From Syntrophorhabdaceae bacterium (GTDB lineage Bacteria; Desulfobacterota; Syntrophorhabdia; Syntrophorhabdales; Syntrophorhabdaceae): a DNA stretch of 64,000 nucleotides. Under the pieces are notes generated by a model. The model was not told the origin of the DNA. It searched no databases and worked only from the letters and a program-made list of their open reading frames with translations. Shown here piece by piece: positions 45,170 to 54,398 of this stretch. Location of the stretch: the NCBI GenBank assembly GCA_963665295.1, contig OY762209.1:544001-608000 (forward strand), written 5' to 3'. The position numbers and the translations under genes were made by a program. How positions within the stretch are numbered: the stretch's first letter is position 1; each line of letters opens with the position of its first letter.

Positions 45170-45440
45170 GGGTGGTCGGGGAGGGTTCTTCCCGGATGCT
45201 CCCTGGCGCTGAAATGTGACCCATTGCTCAATTTCACCGCCCTCGATACGCAGTGCGCAGCAAGTCTTCATTTAAGGGTAAGTCGGCAGTCCGCAAATCC
45301 TGCCTGTTTCGTCACGCCTGATCCTCCTGTCCGGCGCATCGTGCCCGCAGGAAGACGCGGTCACCGGTCGGCAAAATCGGGCAGGGTCCCCACATTTCAT
45401 CTTAATGCTCGCCACCGGGAAGAACCCTCCCCGACCACCC
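45170..45440. repeat. 26-bp perfect inverted repeat with longer imperfect inner arms (MITE/REP-like)
   Basis: gggtggtcggggagggttcttcccgg (45170-45195) and its exact reverse complement (45415-45440). Confidence 0.75.
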
Positions 45441-45522: not shown

Positions 45523-45714
45523 TTGGGATATAATATCGTACACGGCAAGCGCGGGGTAAGCGCCGACACGGCCCTTCGCCTTTCCCGCTATCTTTCCCTA
45601 CCAGAACGTTGTTGGCTCAACCTGCAGTCAAGCTATGACCTTGAGGTCGAAAAAGACAAGCTGAAAAGCAGGATCGAAAGGGAAGTGAAAATACTTGAGA
45701 AAACAACCGCATAG
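45523..45714 (+). pseudogene. higA: N-terminally truncated HigA-family antitoxin
   Basis: IVHGKRGVSADTALRLSRY...WLNLQSSYDL; lacks the N-terminal HPGE segment; no higB upstream. Confidence 0.75.
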
Positions 45715-46387
45715 CAGCAGGGATGAGAGCCATTCGGCCATTCAACTGCGCGGGTCCCGAAAGTGCCCGGCTCGTTGTTGAGATTCCCTGTCGTGCCAAA
45801 CCCTTGTCCTGGCTTATTTTGCGGGATCACCCCAGAGGGCGGAGGTCCGTCGAAGATGGATCGTATTAAACGCCTGAAGGCCGTCCACGTCTACCCCTCG
45901 TTTTGAACCAAAATCCTCTATGTCTGCGGTCCTTGTCTGTCTGCTAAAGATCCCTCCTTCCTGAAGGCGAGTTTGTGTGTGTTTTTCGCGATATGAACAT
46001 GAACATATCATGTGGCAACAGATTGCCTCCTGCGTAATTAACCTCGCCGCGAAATGATTCTGTTTGCTGGGGTCACACGCGTTTTGATCCTCGTCCCAAT
46101 TGAAAATAGTAATGGTGATGAGGGGAAAACCATGTCAAATACTGATTGTGAAAAGTGTCGAATATTAGGAACTTGCGTGGGGGCAAAATGGTGCGGAAAA
46201 AACTAATGATTTGTACGCACAAATCAACTACTCCTTCCTGAAAGCAAGTCTGCGGTCTCTTCCCCTCGTGTACTGAGTTTCATTCGGTAAAATACAACCA
46301 TACGGTCCATGGCAAGGAATTAATTTGACATTATTTTTGCCCAATACGAGAATAGAACAAATACCTTAAATAAGCAGGATAAGACGG

Positions 46388-49300
46388 ATGGTAGGGGTCA
46401 TTGAATTATTTAAAGGACCGACCCCGATACCCTTACGGCCAGCCTCAAACGGAGGACAGGAAGACAAATTGTCTGAGGAATTTAGTCAATCGGGTTGGGA
46501 TAAACTGAATGCTCGTTTTGCAGAACGAACTCGATGGGCCAATCTGTCAGTAACTATCGAAGAGATCGCAAAAGAAAACAGGTCACTTATCGAGAGCCTT
46601 AATAGGTTCGATCCAAAGTTTGCCATTCCCCTCCTGGCAAGCCTTCTAACACTCCCAAAATACCAATCGCATTGTATCCGCTTTGAAATTCTGGTTGTTC
46701 TAGCGATAATCCACTGCCGCGGCAGGAAAAAGGCGAGTCTAAATGAACCGATTCGCTGGTTCTCTCAGATAGGCGAGTCGCAATGCGTGTTAGGTGAAGA
46801 TCCTGCCGAAGATGTCTTTGTTTCTCTGGTGAGGGATGGCAAAGGAGACTACCGGCTTCTTCAAGGTATCTGGGAGTCCGCAGGTTTCTATACTCAATGT
46901 GTCTTGGACGCAATTGAGACCATGCCCAACACCGGCCAGTATGAGCAAATCAAGAAGAGCATCCGTGCTCTTCTCATAATATCCGATATAGTATGCAAGA
47001 AAGCCGGTCTCTCTCGCTATCAACTGGGTTCCGATGAGCGCTATTCAACGTTATCACCGCAGGCACTTCCGGGACGTAATGCCCTAATCTCTCGCGTGAC
47101 AATTACGTTCACGGAGTTGGATGAATACGGCATTACTCCCACCGATATCTTGCCGTTTACCTTTCATCCTGAGATGCGAAACGAATTGCCTATGCAACAA
47201 ATTGGCCTTAGTTACTTGCATCGCTGTCCGCTCATCGTGCACGATGAGCCTCGTCTCACGGTCGCCCTCCCTTCAGCCCTGTCGGTAGCAATTCGGGACT
47301 ATGCGATCGCAAATGTCATAGAAAGCGGACTGACTGAAACTTTTGATGATGCGCTTGCTCAGAATTACTCCAGACTATTCTTCGATACACCTCTCCTTGG
47401 CGGTCCAACGCGAGCCCCGGTCTTCTGGGAAAAGTCAGGTACATTCCAATGGTCGAATTTCTCCCTAAGAGTCGATGAAGGCTACTTCATCTCGTTCCAC
47501 GTGGTCCTACCGTCAGTGCAGATGCATCCCGATGGTGGCTTCAAGGGCGTCTATCGAGATGGAGGAAATCTGGCCAAAACGCTGCAATCTTCGATCAATG
47601 GGGTTGTCAAGCATTTCCAAGGGCAGAACGATTTCAAAGAGGGACTTGTTGTTCTCGTACTCTGCGGCTGGGGTAAAGGTTATACTACCCAAGTTGTCAA
47701 ACTCGCTGACCCGCATTGGCGCTTGGAAACCATGTCCTCAGCGGATCTCGTACGACTCAGTTGGCTTGGTGACATGAGTCCCAGCTACTTCTGGCGCATT
47801 CAAGACGGGTTGGAAGCCGTAAGGAAGGCTGGGGTCGAGATCGTCAATCCCAATGGGATTCTGAACCTGATCGGATGGGTACGCAGCAACAACGGCCACT
47901 TCGTGCCGCATGCACAGCTACCAGAAGGCGAGATTTCCCCAGAACGGCCCCTAATACTCAACCTCCCTCTCAACCTTCTGCGGGAAGTGCGCGCTGATTC
48001 CGATCGCGGTTATGACCGACACAGCGTGGTGGATAACGTTGGAGTTCAGCACGACGTCCAACACGTCTCGCCCAAGCCATTTTTCAGCAGCGGAAGCTCG
48101 CGACGTGTCTATGCCTCCATGGACGACATCGAAAAGGGAACGCATACGTCAGTGTATGAAGGCTCACTCAAGCTTTGGATCTCACTGACCGCGCGCAACT
48201 TCTCAGAAATAGAAGTCGAATCCCGGCTGTGGGAAATGGCAAATGAATGGCTCCGCCGCGTCGGCGATGCCCTCGATAAACGGTACGGTGCGATAATCGA
48301 GACGCGTAATCTCAAGGCCTATGTTGAATTCCATGACGATGACATACCAAAGGAAGGAGGAGATAAACCAGCTTTCGAAGATCTTCTTCCCTGTTGTATA
48401 ATAGAGCCTCACAGCGAGCCTAATGCTTGTAAAGCTGTCTTCCAAGCCGGGTTCGTAGCTGGCTTTCGCATCGCCGAGAATGTTGCCGAGCGACTCTTCG
48501 TCCGCACTGTGGCGCGGGCCTATTTGCATCTCCTCGGTATAGAAGATTGCGATGGTGAGGCCAAGGCCGTTGAGGCCCTTGTCGTTCCAAATGACGACGC
48601 GCGTAGCTTCCATCTCGTTTACGCGCAACAATTCATGGACTACGTTCGCGATACTTTGCCCAAAAAGCTAATCGCTATCGATCCGGTAGATGATGCCGCC
48701 AGCAAGATAGGCCTTGGTTGGCGTGTCCTTGAAAGAAACCAAAGCAACAAGATCGAAGGAAAAGATGCTTGTACAAGCTTTCTTCGTAAAATAGTTGATG
48801 TCTTGCTGACTGAAATTTTCGTCGCACTTCAATCGTTTAGCCGGCTTTCAGCGCTGATGCGCCTTGTGGCCAATTCTGAAAAAGCAAATGACGAGGCGTA
48901 CCATTGGGGGCGGACATCAGCAGCTCTCCTTGGTCTCCATGGCAACGAGCCAGGCACCGTCGATCGCTATGTCGAGCAGATGTCGAAGTTTGCTGGAGCC
49001 AATGTCGCAAGCCGTATTCTGATTGAGATCGGCTTATGTGTCTGTCCGGCAGGGGGAGGGACCCAACTCTCGGATATCGAGCTAAGCAAGTTGATCGCGC
49101 AGGCTGCCTTGGTAGTACGTATTGGTGGTCTCTCGGACGCGATATATTATAACGCGCTCGCCCCGGAACTCACTATTTCGCCTTTGGGTGACATCCTCTT
49201 TCGCAATGATTTTGGCCTCATGGTGGTCGAACCTATGCTGGCCCGCGAGATGGAGAACAGGTTTATCGGTAGTGCCCCCTTGCAGAGGAAGAATTATGAA

Positions 49301-50257
49301 GAACCCCCACTCGCTTCGAACGCCAAAGGCAATGTAGGAGAAGAATTCTGGGATGCATGGAAAATCGAGATGGGTTTTAATCTTGACGAAGGCCGAAACA
49401 TTATTGATGCTCTGGAAAACAAAGGCATTGAGGATCACGCTGCCTTATTAAAGATCCGGCAAAGCGAGTATCTAACTCTTGTCTGTTCCGACAAGGTTCC
49501 CGAAGACGCAGCGAGAAGATTTCTTAATCAGTTTTCGCTATCCACGAGGCCGCAGTGGGATAAACCTCCTGAGGGCTTCATCGGCAGAGATCTTTACCCG
49601 TGGCGCTATGGCCGGCGTTTATCCTTTGCAACTCGCCCTATTCTAATGTTAGATGAGACCGATGATCCCTTGCTGATTGTGGCGCCGGGTGCCCTGCGAA
49701 AGGGTTTCGCTTACGTTTTGGACGGTGCCTATAGTGGTCGACTTGAGCGGGCCTTCTTTCGCACCAATGAAATGAGGGATGCCTGGTTGGGGAAAGCACG
49801 GGAAGGTCACACCTTCAACGCTGAGGTTGGGAAGGCTCTATCAGAGGCCGGATGGCACGTCCGGGAGAATGTTGGCTTGCCCGAGCTTCTCAATCGCAAG
49901 ATTGAACGCAACTATGGAGATATTGATGTGCTTGCATGGCGACCGGATCGCGAAGAGGTATTGGTTGTTGAGTGTAAAGATTTGTCATTGGCGCGCAACT
50001 ATTCCGAGATAGCGGCTCTGCTTTCAGAGTATCAAGGCATCGAAGCGGAAGGCAGATCAGATAAGCTAAAAAAACACCTCGACCGGGTGGCGCATCTCCG
50101 CGATAATTCTGACGAACTTAAGCGATTTACGGGACTTCAAAGGCTACAGGTCATATCTTGCCTCGTGTGCAGTGGCGTGGTCCCTATGCAATATGCAAAG
50201 ATAGGCACCATCACAAATACCCGCGTCGGCAGAGTCTCCGATATTCTGAACCTCTAG
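46388..50257 (+). CDS. Large hypothetical protein with C-terminal PD-(D/E)XK (NERD-like) nuclease domain
   Basis: 1289-aa uninterrupted ORF; C-terminal GDIDVLAW...VLVVECKDL...KHLDR. Confidence 0.7.
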   Translation: MVGVIELFKGPTPIPLRPASNGGQEDKLSEEFSQSGWDKLNARFAERTRWANLSVTIEEIAKENRSLIESLNRFDPKFAIPLLASLLTLPKYQSHCIRFEILVVLAIIHCRGRKKASLNEPIRWFSQIGESQCVLGEDPAEDVFVSLVRDGKGDYRLLQGIWESAGFYTQCVLDAIETMPNTGQYEQIKKSIRALLIISDIVCKKAGLSRYQLGSDERYSTLSPQALPGRNALISRVTITFTELDEYGITPTDILPFTFHPEMRNELPMQQIGLSYLHRCPLIVHDEPRLTVALPSALSVAIRDYAIANVIESGLTETFDDALAQNYSRLFFDTPLLGGPTRAPVFWEKSGTFQWSNFSLRVDEGYFISFHVVLPSVQMHPDGGFKGVYRDGGNLAKTLQSSINGVVKHFQGQNDFKEGLVVLVLCGWGKGYTTQVVKLADPHWRLETMSSADLVRLSWLGDMSPSYFWRIQDGLEAVRKAGVEIVNPNGILNLIGWVRSNNGHFVPHAQLPEGEISPERPLILNLPLNLLREVRADSDRGYDRHSVVDNVGVQHDVQHVSPKPFFSSGSSRRVYASMDDIEKGTHTSVYEGSLKLWISLTARNFSEIEVESRLWEMANEWLRRVGDALDKRYGAIIETRNLKAYVEFHDDDIPKEGGDKPAFEDLLPCCIIEPHSEPNACKAVFQAGFVAGFRIAENVAERLFVRTVARAYLHLLGIEDCDGEAKAVEALVVPNDDARSFHLVYAQQFMDYVRDTLPKKLIAIDPVDDAASKIGLGWRVLERNQSNKIEGKDACTSFLRKIVDVLLTEIFVALQSFSRLSALMRLVANSEKANDEAYHWGRTSAALLGLHGNEPGTVDRYVEQMSKFAGANVASRILIEIGLCVCPAGGGTQLSDIELSKLIAQAALVVRIGGLSDAIYYNALAPELTISPLGDILFRNDFGLMVVEPMLAREMENRFIGSAPLQRKNYEEPPLASNAKGNVGEEFWDAWKIEMGFNLDEGRNIIDALENKGIEDHAALLKIRQSEYLTLVCSDKVPEDAARRFLNQFSLSTRPQWDKPPEGFIGRDLYPWRYGRRLSFATRPILMLDETDDPLLIVAPGALRKGFAYVLDGAYSGRLERAFFRTNEMRDAWLGKAREGHTFNAEVGKALSEAGWHVRENVGLPELLNRKIERNYGDIDVLAWRPDREEVLVVECKDLSLARNYSEIAALLSEYQGIEAEGRSDKLKKHLDRVAHLRDNSDELKRFTGLQRLQVISCLVCSGVVPMQYAKIGTITNTRVGRVSDILNL

Positions 50258-50661
50258 CTTAATTGCAGCCCCGGGCGCAATCTTTAGTTTACCGACCTCG
50301 TCGTAACTTCCGTACTGATCAGGTATTGTTTCTTACTTACGACAGTTCTCATGCTCAGCCACCAAGATAGTGGGCTGATGAAGGGTGCGCCACCGATGCC
50401 TACGCAGGCTCGATGACGCTTTCTATGCGTAATCTTCGGTTGCACCGCCATAGCCTCTTACCGCTTTGCAGGTGCACGGGCCTATTTTCGGTGTCGGCTC
50501 ATTTTGAAGAATTCGCTCAGAGGGCTCGTGCTGATGTACTTCCTGAAAGAGATTCTTTCCCTTGCTGCCCAGCATGAAAGGTTACAAGTGGTATTTATCG
50601 AGCAATTGCTGCATGCAACATAACATCGCTCTGCCGATGATATGTTGCAAATAGGCGAGGC

Positions 50662-51800
50662 TAGTGTACTGTCTCACTAATAGCTTTACAATTACCCTTG
50701 GCTATGCTATCATAGTGCATGTGGAATCCAGCCAGTACGCTAGACATGACGGAAGAGCGGAGAAAGACATTGGAAACATGGGTCAAAGCAAAGAAGACTC
50801 CCCAAAGGGTGGTTCTACGCTCCCGCATCTGCCTGCTCGCGGCAGAAGGGATGTCCCATAACGCCATAGTGAAGAGGCTCAATACCTCCCGCCCTACGGT
50901 GATATTGTGGGTAGGCAGGTTCAAAGAACAAGGTCCCTCGGGCTTATCAGAGGACGCACCCCATGGGCCGAGTTCAAGGCGCCTTAACCCGGAGATAGTG
51001 CGCACCATCGTGGAAGCCACACTCCATACAACTCCCAAAGATGCTACTCAGTGGTCCACCCGCACCATGGCAAAGGAGAAGGGCGTGAGCCATGCCACCG
51101 TGCAGCGCATCTGGGATGCCCATGGACTACAGCCCCATCGGGTAGAAACTTTCAAGCTGTCCAGAGACAAGAAGTTCGTGGAGAAACTGACCGATGTGGT
51201 GGGCGTCTATCTCAATCCTCCCGACAAAGCGGTGGTACTCTGTGTGGATGAGAAAAGCCAGGTGCAGGCCCTGGACCGGACCCAGCCGGGATTACCGATG
51301 AAGAAGGGGCGCTGCGGCACGATGACCCACGACTACAAAAGGAACGGCACTACCTGTCTTTTTGCCGCCCTCAATGTTCTGGAAGGAAAAGTCATAGGCT
51401 CCTGCTATCCCCGCCACAGAAATACCGAATTTCTTAAGTTCCTGCGTACCATAGACCGTCAGGTGCCAAAGGGCCTCGATGTCCATATGATTCTCGACAA
51501 CTACGGAACTCATACCCACCCCAATGTGAAAGCATGGCTCGAAAAACACCCCCGTTTCGTTCCCCACTTTACACCCACAAGCTCGTCGTGGCTTAACCTG
51601 GTGGAGCGCTGGTTCGGGGAGATCACACGAAAGAGAATTCGTCGCGGCATCTTCAAAAGCGTTCAGGAACTGGTGACCGCCATCGAAGAATATATTCGCT
51701 GCAACAACGAAGACCCCAAACCCTTCGTATGGACCAGGAAGGCCGAGGAGATACTTGAAAAAGTGAATCGCTGTAAAGGCGTTACTGAGACACTACACTA
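50662..51800 (+). mobile_element. IS630-family insertion sequence, complete
   Basis: Ends TAgtgtactgtctcactaa / ttactgagacactacacTA (imperfect TIR); TA duplication inside CTAG at both ends. Confidence 0.92.
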
Positions 51801-51801
51801 G
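50719..51801 (+). CDS. IS630 family transposase
   Basis: HTH; VDEKSQ, HDYKRNGT, ILDNY..H, SSWLNLVERWF (DDE). Confidence 0.95.
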   Translation: MWNPASTLDMTEERRKTLETWVKAKKTPQRVVLRSRICLLAAEGMSHNAIVKRLNTSRPTVILWVGRFKEQGPSGLSEDAPHGPSSRRLNPEIVRTIVEATLHTTPKDATQWSTRTMAKEKGVSHATVQRIWDAHGLQPHRVETFKLSRDKKFVEKLTDVVGVYLNPPDKAVVLCVDEKSQVQALDRTQPGLPMKKGRCGTMTHDYKRNGTTCLFAALNVLEGKVIGSCYPRHRNTEFLKFLRTIDRQVPKGLDVHMILDNYGTHTHPNVKAWLEKHPRFVPHFTPTSSSWLNLVERWFGEITRKRIRRGIFKSVQELVTAIEEYIRCNNEDPKPFVWTRKAEEILEKVNRCKGVTETLH

Positions 51802-51872: not shown

Positions 51873-51901
51873 TTGACATTCTCTCCACCAAATACTAAGA
51901 T
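51873..51901 (+). promoter_or_regulatory. Strong sigma-70 promoter reading into the cassette array (Pc-like)
   Basis: TTGACA-17 nt-TAAGAT. Confidence 0.7.
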
Positions 51902-51914
51902 TTCCACAAATTAC

Positions 51915-51940
51915 ATACTGCGGTAGATTAATTGTTAGGC
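51915..51940 (+). other. attI-like site: crossover core GTTAGGC at the start of cassette 1
   Basis: GTTAGGC (51934-51940) is the exact complement of the attC R'' box GCCTAAC; no attC hairpin precedes it. Confidence 0.6.
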
Positions 51941-51958
51941 GCAAGCATGTAGGAACCA

Positions 51959-52243
51959 ATGAAGGCTAAGATTGACGCACTGCAAGTCACCAGTCAACCG
52001 CTCACCGGCAATTGTTCGGGGGTATATTTCTTATTCGATGAACACGAATTGGTCTACGTCGGTCAGGGCTGGAATTGTTTCTTGCGTGTGGCCGAGCATA
52101 CGAGAAGGGATTCAGACAAAATCTTCACGAATTGGAACTTCATCAAAATTAAAAGTGAAAAAGAAAGAAAACAATTTGAACAAGAAGTAATAAACAGATT
52201 CAAGCCCAAATATAACAAGGTCCATATGGGAGACGGTTCATGA
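51959..52243 (+). CDS. Minimal stand-alone GIY-YIG nuclease (cassette 1, gene 1)
   Basis: SGVYFL..ELVYVGQ...RVAEH...FEQEVINRFKPKYN contains the GIY, YIG, Arg, Glu and Asn positions. Confidence 0.8.
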   Translation: MKAKIDALQVTSQPLTGNCSGVYFLFDEHELVYVGQGWNCFLRVAEHTRRDSDKIFTNWNFIKIKSEKERKQFEQEVINRFKPKYNKVHMGDGS

Positions 52244-52434
52244 TTAACACCGGCAAGGCGTGTTCAATCTGTGGTAAGTGGCACCGTTTAGAAGAATATA
52301 CATACGGCAACCGAGAGAACAGATCTTACTGCAAGACATGCAACAAAGAAGAAAAGAAGGCATATGGAAAAGGCGGCGCACAAGCAGCTAGAGAATATAG
52401 AGAAAATGAAAGAAGTAAATGGAAAAGGGCCTAA
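52240..52434 (+). CDS. Small basic CxxC-x19-CxxC zinc-finger protein (cassette 1, gene 2)
   Basis: CSIC...CKTC; ATGA overlap with the GIY-YIG gene; stop TAA lies inside attC R''. Confidence 0.7.
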   Translation: MINTGKACSICGKWHRLEEYTYGNRENRSYCKTCNKEEKKAYGKGGAQAAREYRENERSKWKRA

Positions 52435-52489
52435 CAATCGGCTGCACCGAATCCAGGCTATGCCCGTCTCGGTGAGCCGCATGTTAGCT
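52429..52489 (+). other. Integron attC site (61 bp)
   Basis: R'' GCCTAAC, 5 nt, L'' GCT[G]CACC ... L' GGTGAGC, 5 nt, R' GTTAGCT. Confidence 0.88.
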
Positions 52490-52517
52490 CCACAAAGATG
52501 AAACTGAAGAGGCGACC

Positions 52518-53612
52518 ATGAAAGAAAATCTGATGAATGCGATCAAAGAAATTAGAAACGACGGTTCTCTGTTGATCTTGGATGAAGCATCAATCAAGTC
52601 GGCTATCATACTCCGCCTTCTTTCGTTGCTGGGGTGGAATCCTTTCGACATTAACCAAGTTAAACCCGAGTATACCGTAGAATCCAAACGGGTAGATTTC
52701 TCCTTAAGAATAAATGGTGCAAACAAGGCTTTCATAGAAGTGAAGCGACCGAGTGAAAACCTTGAGCCACATCAGGAACAGCTTCTGGGATACTCATTCA
52801 GGGAAGGAGTTAAGATCGCAATTCTAACAAACGGAGTTACCTGGTGGTTCTATCTCCCGTTAAACGAGGGCAGTTGGGAACAGCGACGATTCTTTACTGC
52901 TGATTTTACGGAACAACCACTCGAATCGATAGCTGACCGATTCATTGCTTTGCTGTCAAAAGATCATATCGCGACGGGTGACGCGGTAAAAAATGCCGAA
53001 GGCCTATATCAAAGTCGCCAAAGAAAAGGCATTCTGAAAGAAGCCTTGCCTAAGGCGTGGCATAAATTAATTAATGATCCAGACGATCTCTTGGTTGATC
53101 TCTTGATAGAAACCACCGAAAAACTGTCTGGGTTTCGCCCAGAAATAGAAGATGTTGAGAGATTCTTAGGCAGTATTGCCCATCCTGCATTTCCAAAGCC
53201 TGGAACCCCTCTTTCTCCCGCGCCTCCGAAGCCGTATCAACCCCCGAGGCCGGGAGTTTCTGAATCATCTACCGATGGCTATATCAACAAACAGATCGTG
53301 GCATTTACACTACTCGGAAAAACATATCGTCCTCGTAATTGGAAAGAACTTATGGTCACTGTCGCTGAGGAAATGTACCGGAGGCATCCTGCGGACTTTG
53401 AACGTGCGCTTATGCTTCGTGGTCCCAAGATGGCCTATTACGCACTTCATGCCAATCAATTGAGTCAACCATCACAAATTTCCGATTCGAAATACTTTGT
53501 AGAGACAAAACTGAACACAAACTCAATAGTAAGGCGATGCCACGGATTGCTGTCACTTTTCGGATATAGTGATACTGATTTAAGCATAGAGGTAGATGAA
53601 AAGAGAACATGA
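52518..53612 (+). CDS. HsdR_N-type PD-(D/E)XK nuclease fused to a SeqA-like C-terminal domain (cassette 2)
   Basis: LGWNPFD...PEY...RVDF...FIEVKR...QL..Y...ILTNG..W; Pro-rich linker; C-terminus LRGPKMAYYA...PSQISDSKYFVETKLN. Confidence 0.8.
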   Translation: MKENLMNAIKEIRNDGSLLILDEASIKSAIILRLLSLLGWNPFDINQVKPEYTVESKRVDFSLRINGANKAFIEVKRPSENLEPHQEQLLGYSFREGVKIAILTNGVTWWFYLPLNEGSWEQRRFFTADFTEQPLESIADRFIALLSKDHIATGDAVKNAEGLYQSRQRKGILKEALPKAWHKLINDPDDLLVDLLIETTEKLSGFRPEIEDVERFLGSIAHPAFPKPGTPLSPAPPKPYQPPRPGVSESSTDGYINKQIVAFTLLGKTYRPRNWKELMVTVAEEMYRRHPADFERALMLRGPKMAYYALHANQLSQPSQISDSKYFVETKLNTNSIVRRCHGLLSLFGYSDTDLSIEVDEKRT

Positions 53613-53682
53613 GCTAACCCGTCGCTACCTTTAGCCGGATCGCGGCCCTGTCGGGCTGCTCTGGCTGATCCTATTGTTGTCG
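53612..53682 (+). other. Degenerate or hybrid attC site closing cassette 2
   Basis: R'' (G)AGCTAAC complements the cassette-start GTTAGCT(C); internal hairpin; L'-like GCTGATC, 5 nt, GTTGTCG. Confidence 0.6.
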
Positions 53683-54398
53683 CTCTTTTAATCGGTAATG
53701 GTTGTTTTTGCGGAACCGCTCACATTCACACTTTGTAGGTGTACGCGAGAAAATCCAATCCGATAATGCAGGCGCAATAATCATTAGTTTTTTCCGCATG
53801 CTTTTGTCATTATCTAACCCACTAACGAGATTACACTTATTTCCCGCGCGTTTGAGAGGGTTCTTTACGCAGTCCGGATATCGTACCTGTCACAGCTTTT
53901 TTGTGGTAATGGTGGACGGAAGGCAAAGCCCCCCTGTAGACTTGTGGAGCCAGCCCTCCCGGTGTTGCCCTGGACGTGCTATTCAGATCGCCACCGGCAG
54001 TTATCATTGTGGATTATCTTCCTTCCTGGTGCCAATTTCCCGGCATCCTCTATTTCAATAATTAATTATGCCGGGTCGTGTGGATGGCCGCAGGGGGTGA
54101 AGGCTTCAGGTTCGTTGCTCTGTGAAGGTTCGTGGGGCGTCGGCGTATTAAATATACGCCAGAGCACGCGTACCTTTGCAGAGCGGCGGAGATGGAGTCT
54201 TCACCCCCTGCGGCCATCCGTCCAAGTGAACATAAAGCCAAACAGACAACACAAACCGCGAACAGACGAGAGCCATCCCCGCAAAACCCCGACACTCTCC
54301 CTTCCTCTCTCCCGCTCACGCCCCACGCTCACGCCCCACGCTCACGCTCGGTTAATGCTTGACTCTCTTACTGCCCGCCGTGGTATCATAAGGACGCT

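Follow-up and report, generated by a model that had tools for sequence, protein, structure and literature searches.

An integron array with an attI, a likely promoter and two cassettes in a Syntrophorhabdaceae genome without a detectable integron integrase gene

The DNA analyzed here (hereafter the window) is a stretch of 64,000 nt from a Syntrophorhabdaceae bacterium (GCA_963665295.1, contig OY762209.1, positions 544,001 to 608,000 of the forward strand), and coordinates are those of the window unless a genome is named. The genome that carries it (hereafter G000) was assembled as a single contig that is 98% complete. We confirmed that the window holds a genuine integron array, composed of an attI, a likely promoter and two cassettes, in a genome in which no gene for the integron integrase (intI) was detectable. 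The GC content of the cassettes is 44 to 45%, compared with 55% for the genome. Upstream of the array lies the gene for a 1289-residue anti-phage protein, Upx (46388–50257, plus strand), which is a neighbor and not a cassette; it matched PADLOC with 1773 bits and NCBIfam NF042954 with 1825 bits, below the cut-off of 1900. The left part of the integration platform (50539–50660, plus strand) is followed by an IS630-family element (50661–51801, plus strand; NF033545, 270 bits) with terminal inverted repeats, which is located within the platform approximately 70 bp upstream of the −35 box and leaves the promoter whole. G000 contains 14 full-length copies of this element at 98.7–100% and two partial ones, and its insertion here is recent. 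The element, the damage to the attC of cassette 2 and the two ORFs of cassette 1 go beyond what an earlier reading of the letters alone (hereafter the sequence-only reading) had described.

Both cassettes show the boundaries expected of integron cassettes. Cassette 1 (51935–52483, plus strand, 549 bp) starts with the core GTTAGGC at 51934, which complements the R'' box GCCTAAC at its own end, and cassette 2 (52484–53676, plus strand, 1193 bp) starts with the core GTTAGCTC at 52483, which complements a second R'' box, GAGCTAAC, at 53611. The stop codons of the two cassettes are TAA at 52432–52434, within R'', and TGA at 53610–53612. From the word frequency of the genome, the chance of the two core complements is roughly 5e-4 and 4e-5, with the sizes of the searched intervals picked post hoc. 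The first site, attC1 (52429–52489, plus strand), is intact, and its boxes are R'' GCCTAAC at 52429, L'' GCTGCACC at 52441, L' GGTGAGC at 52471 and R' GTTAGCTC at 52483; all box coordinates of the sequence-only reading were verified when the sequence was read again. The bottom strand of attC1 folds with −18.5 kcal/mol (z −5.18; none of 200 shuffles equally good) into the canonical structure with an R box, an L box and one extrahelical base. The probability that the R box is closed was 0.97 for attC1, 0.01 for the second site (attC2) and 0.36 to 0.77 for intact attC2 homologs in loci L062 and L061.

A geometry scan of the whole genome (AAC..GTT with 7/7 L-box pairing over 5.5 Mb) gave 27 candidates, among which attC1 alone passed a consensus-box filter. 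A stricter genome scan with RYYYAAC/GTTRRRY boxes returned no site, because the R' box of attC1, GTTAGCT, lies outside GTTRRRY. We also trained a covariance model on 11 attC sites from the genomes of relatives. It produced three matches in the window, namely, attC1 with 56.4 bits (E 8e-13), the reverse strand of attC1, and 53612–53682 with 24.9 bits (E 4e-4); the score of attC1 is not fully independent because one training site is 84% identical to it. The sequence-only reading had staked its proposal on such a match at 52429–52489. Genome-wide, 150 of 1624 candidates were scored with the model, which is not exhaustive since it missed an intact 91-bp attC elsewhere in G000. The weaker of the two sites, attC2 (53612–53682, plus strand), ends cassette 2 and is 82% like the first attC of the integron in genome G016. 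It is damaged by a 4-nt insertion in L'', a mismatched L' and poor R pairing, and it did not give the canonical fold. The array ends at 53677–53700 (plus strand), probably the original right-hand side of the empty attI, and similar sequence comes after the attC of the first cassette in G051:C33 and G012:C156. A third attC-like site of 32.6 bits, which folds poorly, was observed at G000:C1:787884–787948 in a mobile island, where it follows an HNH gene; at least two more attC-like relics were seen upstream of it by eye, and no dock of the window type is present there. The sole Rfam match, to a miRNA, falls on a palindromic repeat at 54086–54215 and was dismissed as due to chance.

Cassette 1 contains two overlapping ORFs. 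The first (51959–52243, plus strand) encodes a 94-residue GIY-YIG nuclease-like protein that scored 21.7 bits against PF01541, whose cut-off is 22.6, and retains G21-V-Y23, Y33-V-G35, R43, H47, E74 and N86, residues to which we presume catalytic roles. The second (52240–52434, plus strand) encodes a Cys-rich protein of 64 residues with two CxxC pairs; it overlaps the stop of the GIY-YIG ORF at ATGA, its own stop lies in R'', and its nearest Atlas clusters are unnamed viral proteins. This ORF also accompanies the GIY-YIG gene in two other loci, L100 (57%) and L099 (82%), the latter with an in-frame stop. The whole cassette 1 unit recurs in L099, 88% identical over 491 nt, with its own core and a different attC. 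Among the seven metagenome homologs, L103 is likewise part of an attC array, L100 has cores that match but no hit of the model, and four have neither.

Cassette 2 encodes a single 364-residue protein (52518–53612, plus strand) composed of an HsdR_N domain of PD-(D/E)xK type and a C-terminal SeqA-like domain. The protein matched PF04313 (HsdR_N) with 42.5 bits and has 1201 homologs; D60, E74 and K76 are invariant in all 30 aligned homologs (30 of the 120 listed). The profile of the C-terminal domain matched SeqA (3sk7) with an E-value of 2.6e-4. In a structural model with a pLDDT of 86.5, Foldseek returned DrdV, BpuSI, HsdR and SeqA, with an rmsd of 1.6 to 2.2 Å for SeqA and no hit at E≤0.001. 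The nuclease domain has an intact catalytic motif and, in a single-gene cassette, no methyltransferase partner, as in type IV-like systems. From the SeqA-like fold of its C-terminal domain, the protein is predicted to read adenine-methylated DNA and to cut it, and this nuclease-SeqA fusion could be a methyl-adenine-directed restriction enzyme. A literature search found no paper describing an HsdR_N-SeqA fusion, within a coverage that leaves out most subscription papers. In L082, the same core pair, GTTAGCT and AGCTAAC, and two attC sites flank the homolog; among 20 genome loci, this is the only one in which the homolog is a cassette, the other 19 having no attC match. Homologs flanked by matching cores or attC sites, which the sequence-only reading had named as a check, were found elsewhere for each cassette.

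A role of both cassettes in anti-phage defense is likely, and we regard them as compact candidate defense genes. Searches of the proteins of cassettes 1 and 2 against named defense systems, including PADLOC, gave no match beyond short domain hits. In being compact nuclease-domain genes, they resemble the defense cassettes of integrons described by Darracq et al. (10.1101/2024.07.02.601686) and Kieffer et al. (10.1101/2024.07.02.601719), the latter of which also mentions a pseudo-attC within a small defense island. They differ in that "GIY-YIG" occurs 0 times in the main text of either paper and that an HsdR_N-SeqA fusion was not found in the accessible passages of either. Two observations were made beside the Upx gene: it is full-length with its own TTGACA upstream at 46325, and 45523–45714 encodes a truncated HigA antitoxin of which the C-terminal part is left, scoring 47.6 bits against TIGR02607 (cut-off 47.7), with no HigB partner seen.

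The region in front of cassette 1 was compared with related sites, which we call docks. The array of the window is dock A, and a paralogous site in the same genome (G000:2370044–2370312) is dock B; besides dock B, the set comprises 13 homologous loci in 11 relatives, chosen from search hits and therefore not a random sample. Over these 13 loci, 60 to 270 bp upstream are conserved despite different neighbors, and the 158 bp preceding the first core have matches in nine of 68 family genomes. In a 15-site alignment, conservation extends from TTGACA to TTAATT-GTT and then stops, as expected for a crossover point, which leads us to read 51902–51940 (plus strand) as an attI with the crossover G|TT at 51934/51935. 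The alignment marks the site ahead of cassette 1 as an attI shared across the family, together with a conserved putative TTGACA promoter, and the attI and integron cassettes proposed in the sequence-only reading held up in it and in the covariance search. The predicted cassette promoter, Pc (51873–51901, plus strand), has TTGACA from 51873, a 17-nt spacer and TAAGAT ending at 51901, which agrees with the consensus at 10 of 12 positions; 32 nt separate it from the core GTTAGGC. A perfect TTGACA 17 to 18 nt from a −10 box is present in 12 of 14 homologous docks, and sites of this kind have a density of 0.04 per kb per strand in the genome. The case for the promoter rests on this conservation because a plain promoter scan of the region counted six promoter-like sites versus 4.9 in shuffles, which is no excess. 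From this conservation, we regard 51873–51901 as a likely promoter, which would transcribe the cassettes as the sequence-only reading had proposed.

The left part of the platform matches G051:C130 (79% identity across 53 nt), dock B (93%, 130 nt) and the same-genus genome G001 (86%, 81 nt). Positions 50597–50649 correspond to the sequence that immediately precedes the start of intI in G051, and no intI follows them in the window. In G051:C130, the dock homolog adjoins a divergent intI that carries stops and a frameshift, and its −35 box is TTGAAA. An attC was found downstream of eight of the 13 relative docks, one being a training site of the model and two being weak (E 0.085 and 0.13). Complete integrons of the family (G016:C1, G035:C146 and G003:C1) have the same attC types, and the TTAATT|GTT end is common to sites beside intact intI in G016, G017, G035 and G003; unlike the window dock, they have an intact intI, and the interiors of their attI sites differ from the window type. 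In the complete integron of G003:C1 (L066 / L011), the layout is not the usual divergent one: the attI and cassettes lie past the 3' end of intI and share its orientation. A palindromic box, TACTGC-n2-GCAGTA, was noticed both within the attI and close to where intI begins (L051:1709–1911); it may be a binding site for the integrase or a repressor.

The absence of intI, which the sequence-only reading had put as "no intact integrase," was borne out by three kinds of search of the genome. A TIGR02249 profile search gave 13 matches, the best with 73.9 bits against a cut-off of 265 and none over it; tblastn with the recombinases of 14 relatives detected no intI remnant near either dock; and a family IntI profile built from 10 sequences found nothing near either dock in six frames. 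A stretch on the minus strand at 50260–50600, suspected as a decayed 5' end of intI from what we took to be a resemblance, was rejected since neither the tblastn search with 14 recombinases nor the 10-sequence profile supported it. IntI over the cut-off was found in 10 of the 41 genomes in the search of relatives. The 11 dock-bearing relatives, all draft genomes, include four with IntI over the cut-off, one with a partial match and six in which none was found; the match of G051 is the broken intI adjoining its dock. An intI lies beside only one of the 13 relative docks, 10 have none within at least 2.4 kb upstream, and two contigs end early (128 bp and 1.7 kb). Four sequencing runs, analyzed as contigs, revealed no joint for excision or reordering of cassettes (three were patchy over the array and one may be the source sample), and a lone IS-skipping joint was assigned to dock B from its loose ends.

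With two covariance-model matches, the second a damaged site, and no intI adjoining its attI, the array is an integron remnant of CALIN type, and remnants of this type are well known and common. CALINs without intI were described in 2016 (Cury 2016, PMC4889954), and the accessible parts of several sources (among them PMC4889954, 10.1101/2022.09.11.507474, 10.1101/2022.02.06.479319 and PMC8876359) portray them as common, for the most part small and free of intI pseudogenes, and mobilizable in trans. According to the available text of Loot et al. (10.1101/2022.09.11.507474), 95% lack an intI pseudogene and 1362 of 2961 have two cassettes. The array of the window, small and without an intI pseudogene, resembles such typical CALINs; it differs from them, as far as those sources describe them, in retaining an identifiable attI and a Pc-like promoter and in having a dock of which G000 carries a second copy loaded with other cargo. 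It shares with the SALIN and attG cases of Loot et al. (10.1101/2022.09.11.507474) cassettes that lie far from intI and are perhaps expressed from a nearby promoter, but its insertion site is a conserved attI, whereas those reported there are arbitrary genomic sites. As in the Xanthomonas integrons with inactivated intI (10.1101/2025.06.18.660453), the platform outlasts the integrase. In the Xanthomonas text, however, strains with a common intI lesion usually have identical arrays, whereas docks of the window type share a junction yet differ in their first cassette, and their loci are not syntenic across the genus. A conserved chromosomal integron locus was rejected, since in each of the three same-genus genomes a different gene stands upstream of the ArsA-like ATPase.

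Dock B bears directly on how the array arose. Across the left junction, where intI is missing, it has 93–94% identity to the window, and it carries no IS630 element; its first cassette has no Pfam match, is unrelated to cassette 1 and ends in the intact 91-bp attC. A second short cassette was observed after it (G000:C1:2370044–2371420), whose attC-like end breaks off beside an opposite-strand ORF that we take to be transposase-like. G001 has the same intI-less junction with a third distinct first cassette. For precise G|TT joins that carry different cassettes behind one junction, the simplest explanation would be an IntI acting in trans after the dock had become detached, and cassette exchange probably continued in trans after intI was lost. 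The description of the array as frozen in the sequence-only reading fits the genome of today, but the different first cassette of dock B suggests exchange after the loss of intI.

We give a probability of about 0.7 to the reading that the array is a detached platform of attI and likely promoter, with two IntI-inserted, likely anti-phage cassettes and exchange in trans after intI loss. Insertion of both cassettes at G|TT by an integron integrase is the most likely origin of their joins. Counted in favor were the sites, the folds, the homologous docks, the mobility of the cassettes elsewhere and the lack of an intI match in the genome, together with the Upx gene and HigA fragment as neighbors. 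Counted against it were the broken intI and TTGAAA −35 box at the sole dock beside an intI, the promoter scan that showed no excess over shuffles, the lack of an attC match for cassette 2 gene homologs in 19 of 20 genome loci and for GIY-YIG homologs in five of seven metagenome loci, and the fact that both cassette proteins match named defense systems by short domain hits at most. The same broken intI would suit an array that came complete with its present cassettes and decayed in place, with no later exchange, and so would the IS630 element and damaged sites of the window array; intI loss is among the routes to CALINs listed in the text of Cury 2016 (PMC4889954). Yet docks A and B and the dock of G001 share the intI-less junction and have three different first cassettes, so that decay in place would call for several deletions that all ended at one position. 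Since a dispersed family repeat forms the junction, repeat-driven parallel deletions could occur, and we regard decay in place as unlikely but worth keeping in mind.

Two further explanations have much lower probabilities. The array might still be active through an intI that the assembly lacks (on a plasmid, for instance) or through another tyrosine recombinase of the genome. G000 does have several ordinary tyrosine recombinases, and a one-contig record would omit other replicons; however, that contig is 98% complete, and the recombinase matches at E<1 skip positions ~295–347 of the IntI profile, presumably the IntI-specific insertion, which makes continued activity very improbable. The remotest explanation is off-target insertion at an ordinary attG behind an unrelated promoter, at a place that was never an integron platform. 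IntI does insert cassettes at attG, and small CALINs may arise in this way according to the text of Loot et al. (10.1101/2022.09.11.507474), and the family IntI profile found no intI remnant. By contrast, the sequence upstream of the docks is conserved among the relatives, ends at GTT and lies beside intI in one of them, and the attG explanation appears largely refuted by the 15-site alignment.

When IntI recombines the folded bottom strand of an attC with attI, the newest cassette comes to stand at the head of the array, a scheme consistent with PMC4889954. On the preferred reading of a detached platform, cassette 2 would have been inserted first and cassette 1 later, displacing cassette 2 downstream, and Pc would transcribe both; at least one exchange in trans would have followed the loss of intI from the platform. 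With no IntI present, the order of the array would now be fixed. An incoming IntI should still be able to excise cassette 1; cassette 2, whose own attC is damaged, could probably not be excised through that site. More tentatively, and at odds well short of even, the module of approximately 270 bp made up of promoter and attI could be a satellite dock of this family that is copied to other chromosomal positions without an integrase gene, filled and refilled in trans by a passing IntI, and able to switch on captured defense genes, an idea based on the presence of intI beside only one of 13 homologous docks in relatives.

The array as such is ordinary, as integrase-less cassette clusters outnumber complete integrons. 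What is new is an attI-Pc consensus for a family so far unstudied, which is not visible to standard tools, and besides it the signs of cassette exchange in trans. IntegronFinder would miss the attI of the window because, as its method is described, it matches only class 1–3 attI sites by exact pattern. With the consensus, the origin of CALINs, a question left open in the text of Cury 2016 (PMC4889954) and Loot et al. (10.1101/2022.09.11.507474), can be asked; here the origin appears to lie in a detached dock that was loaded in trans rather than in random insertion at attG. A literature search found no natural solo attI-Pc dock in chromosomes, with supplements and subscription papers as places that could hold cases.

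The surroundings of the array are rich in repeats. The arms of a 35-bp inverted repeat (83%; 46184–46218 and 53772–53806) enclose the Upx gene, the IS element and the array. A mobile element bounded by these arms found no support: the repeat that flanks the region was present in 10 of the 68 genomes of the family, but a scan of 31 of 65 neighboring ORFs gave no partner gene that recurred consistently. Similar left and right ends, approximately 67 kb apart, were observed at G000 818585 and 751288, the second of which precedes an integrase-like ORF. Pieces of the dispersed non-coding repeat, which is found in many family genomes, are located at 45957, 46234, 50539 and 53730–53945. Palindromic repeats of two further families, whose copy numbers in the genome range from several to many, occur at 45170–45440 and 54082–54219.
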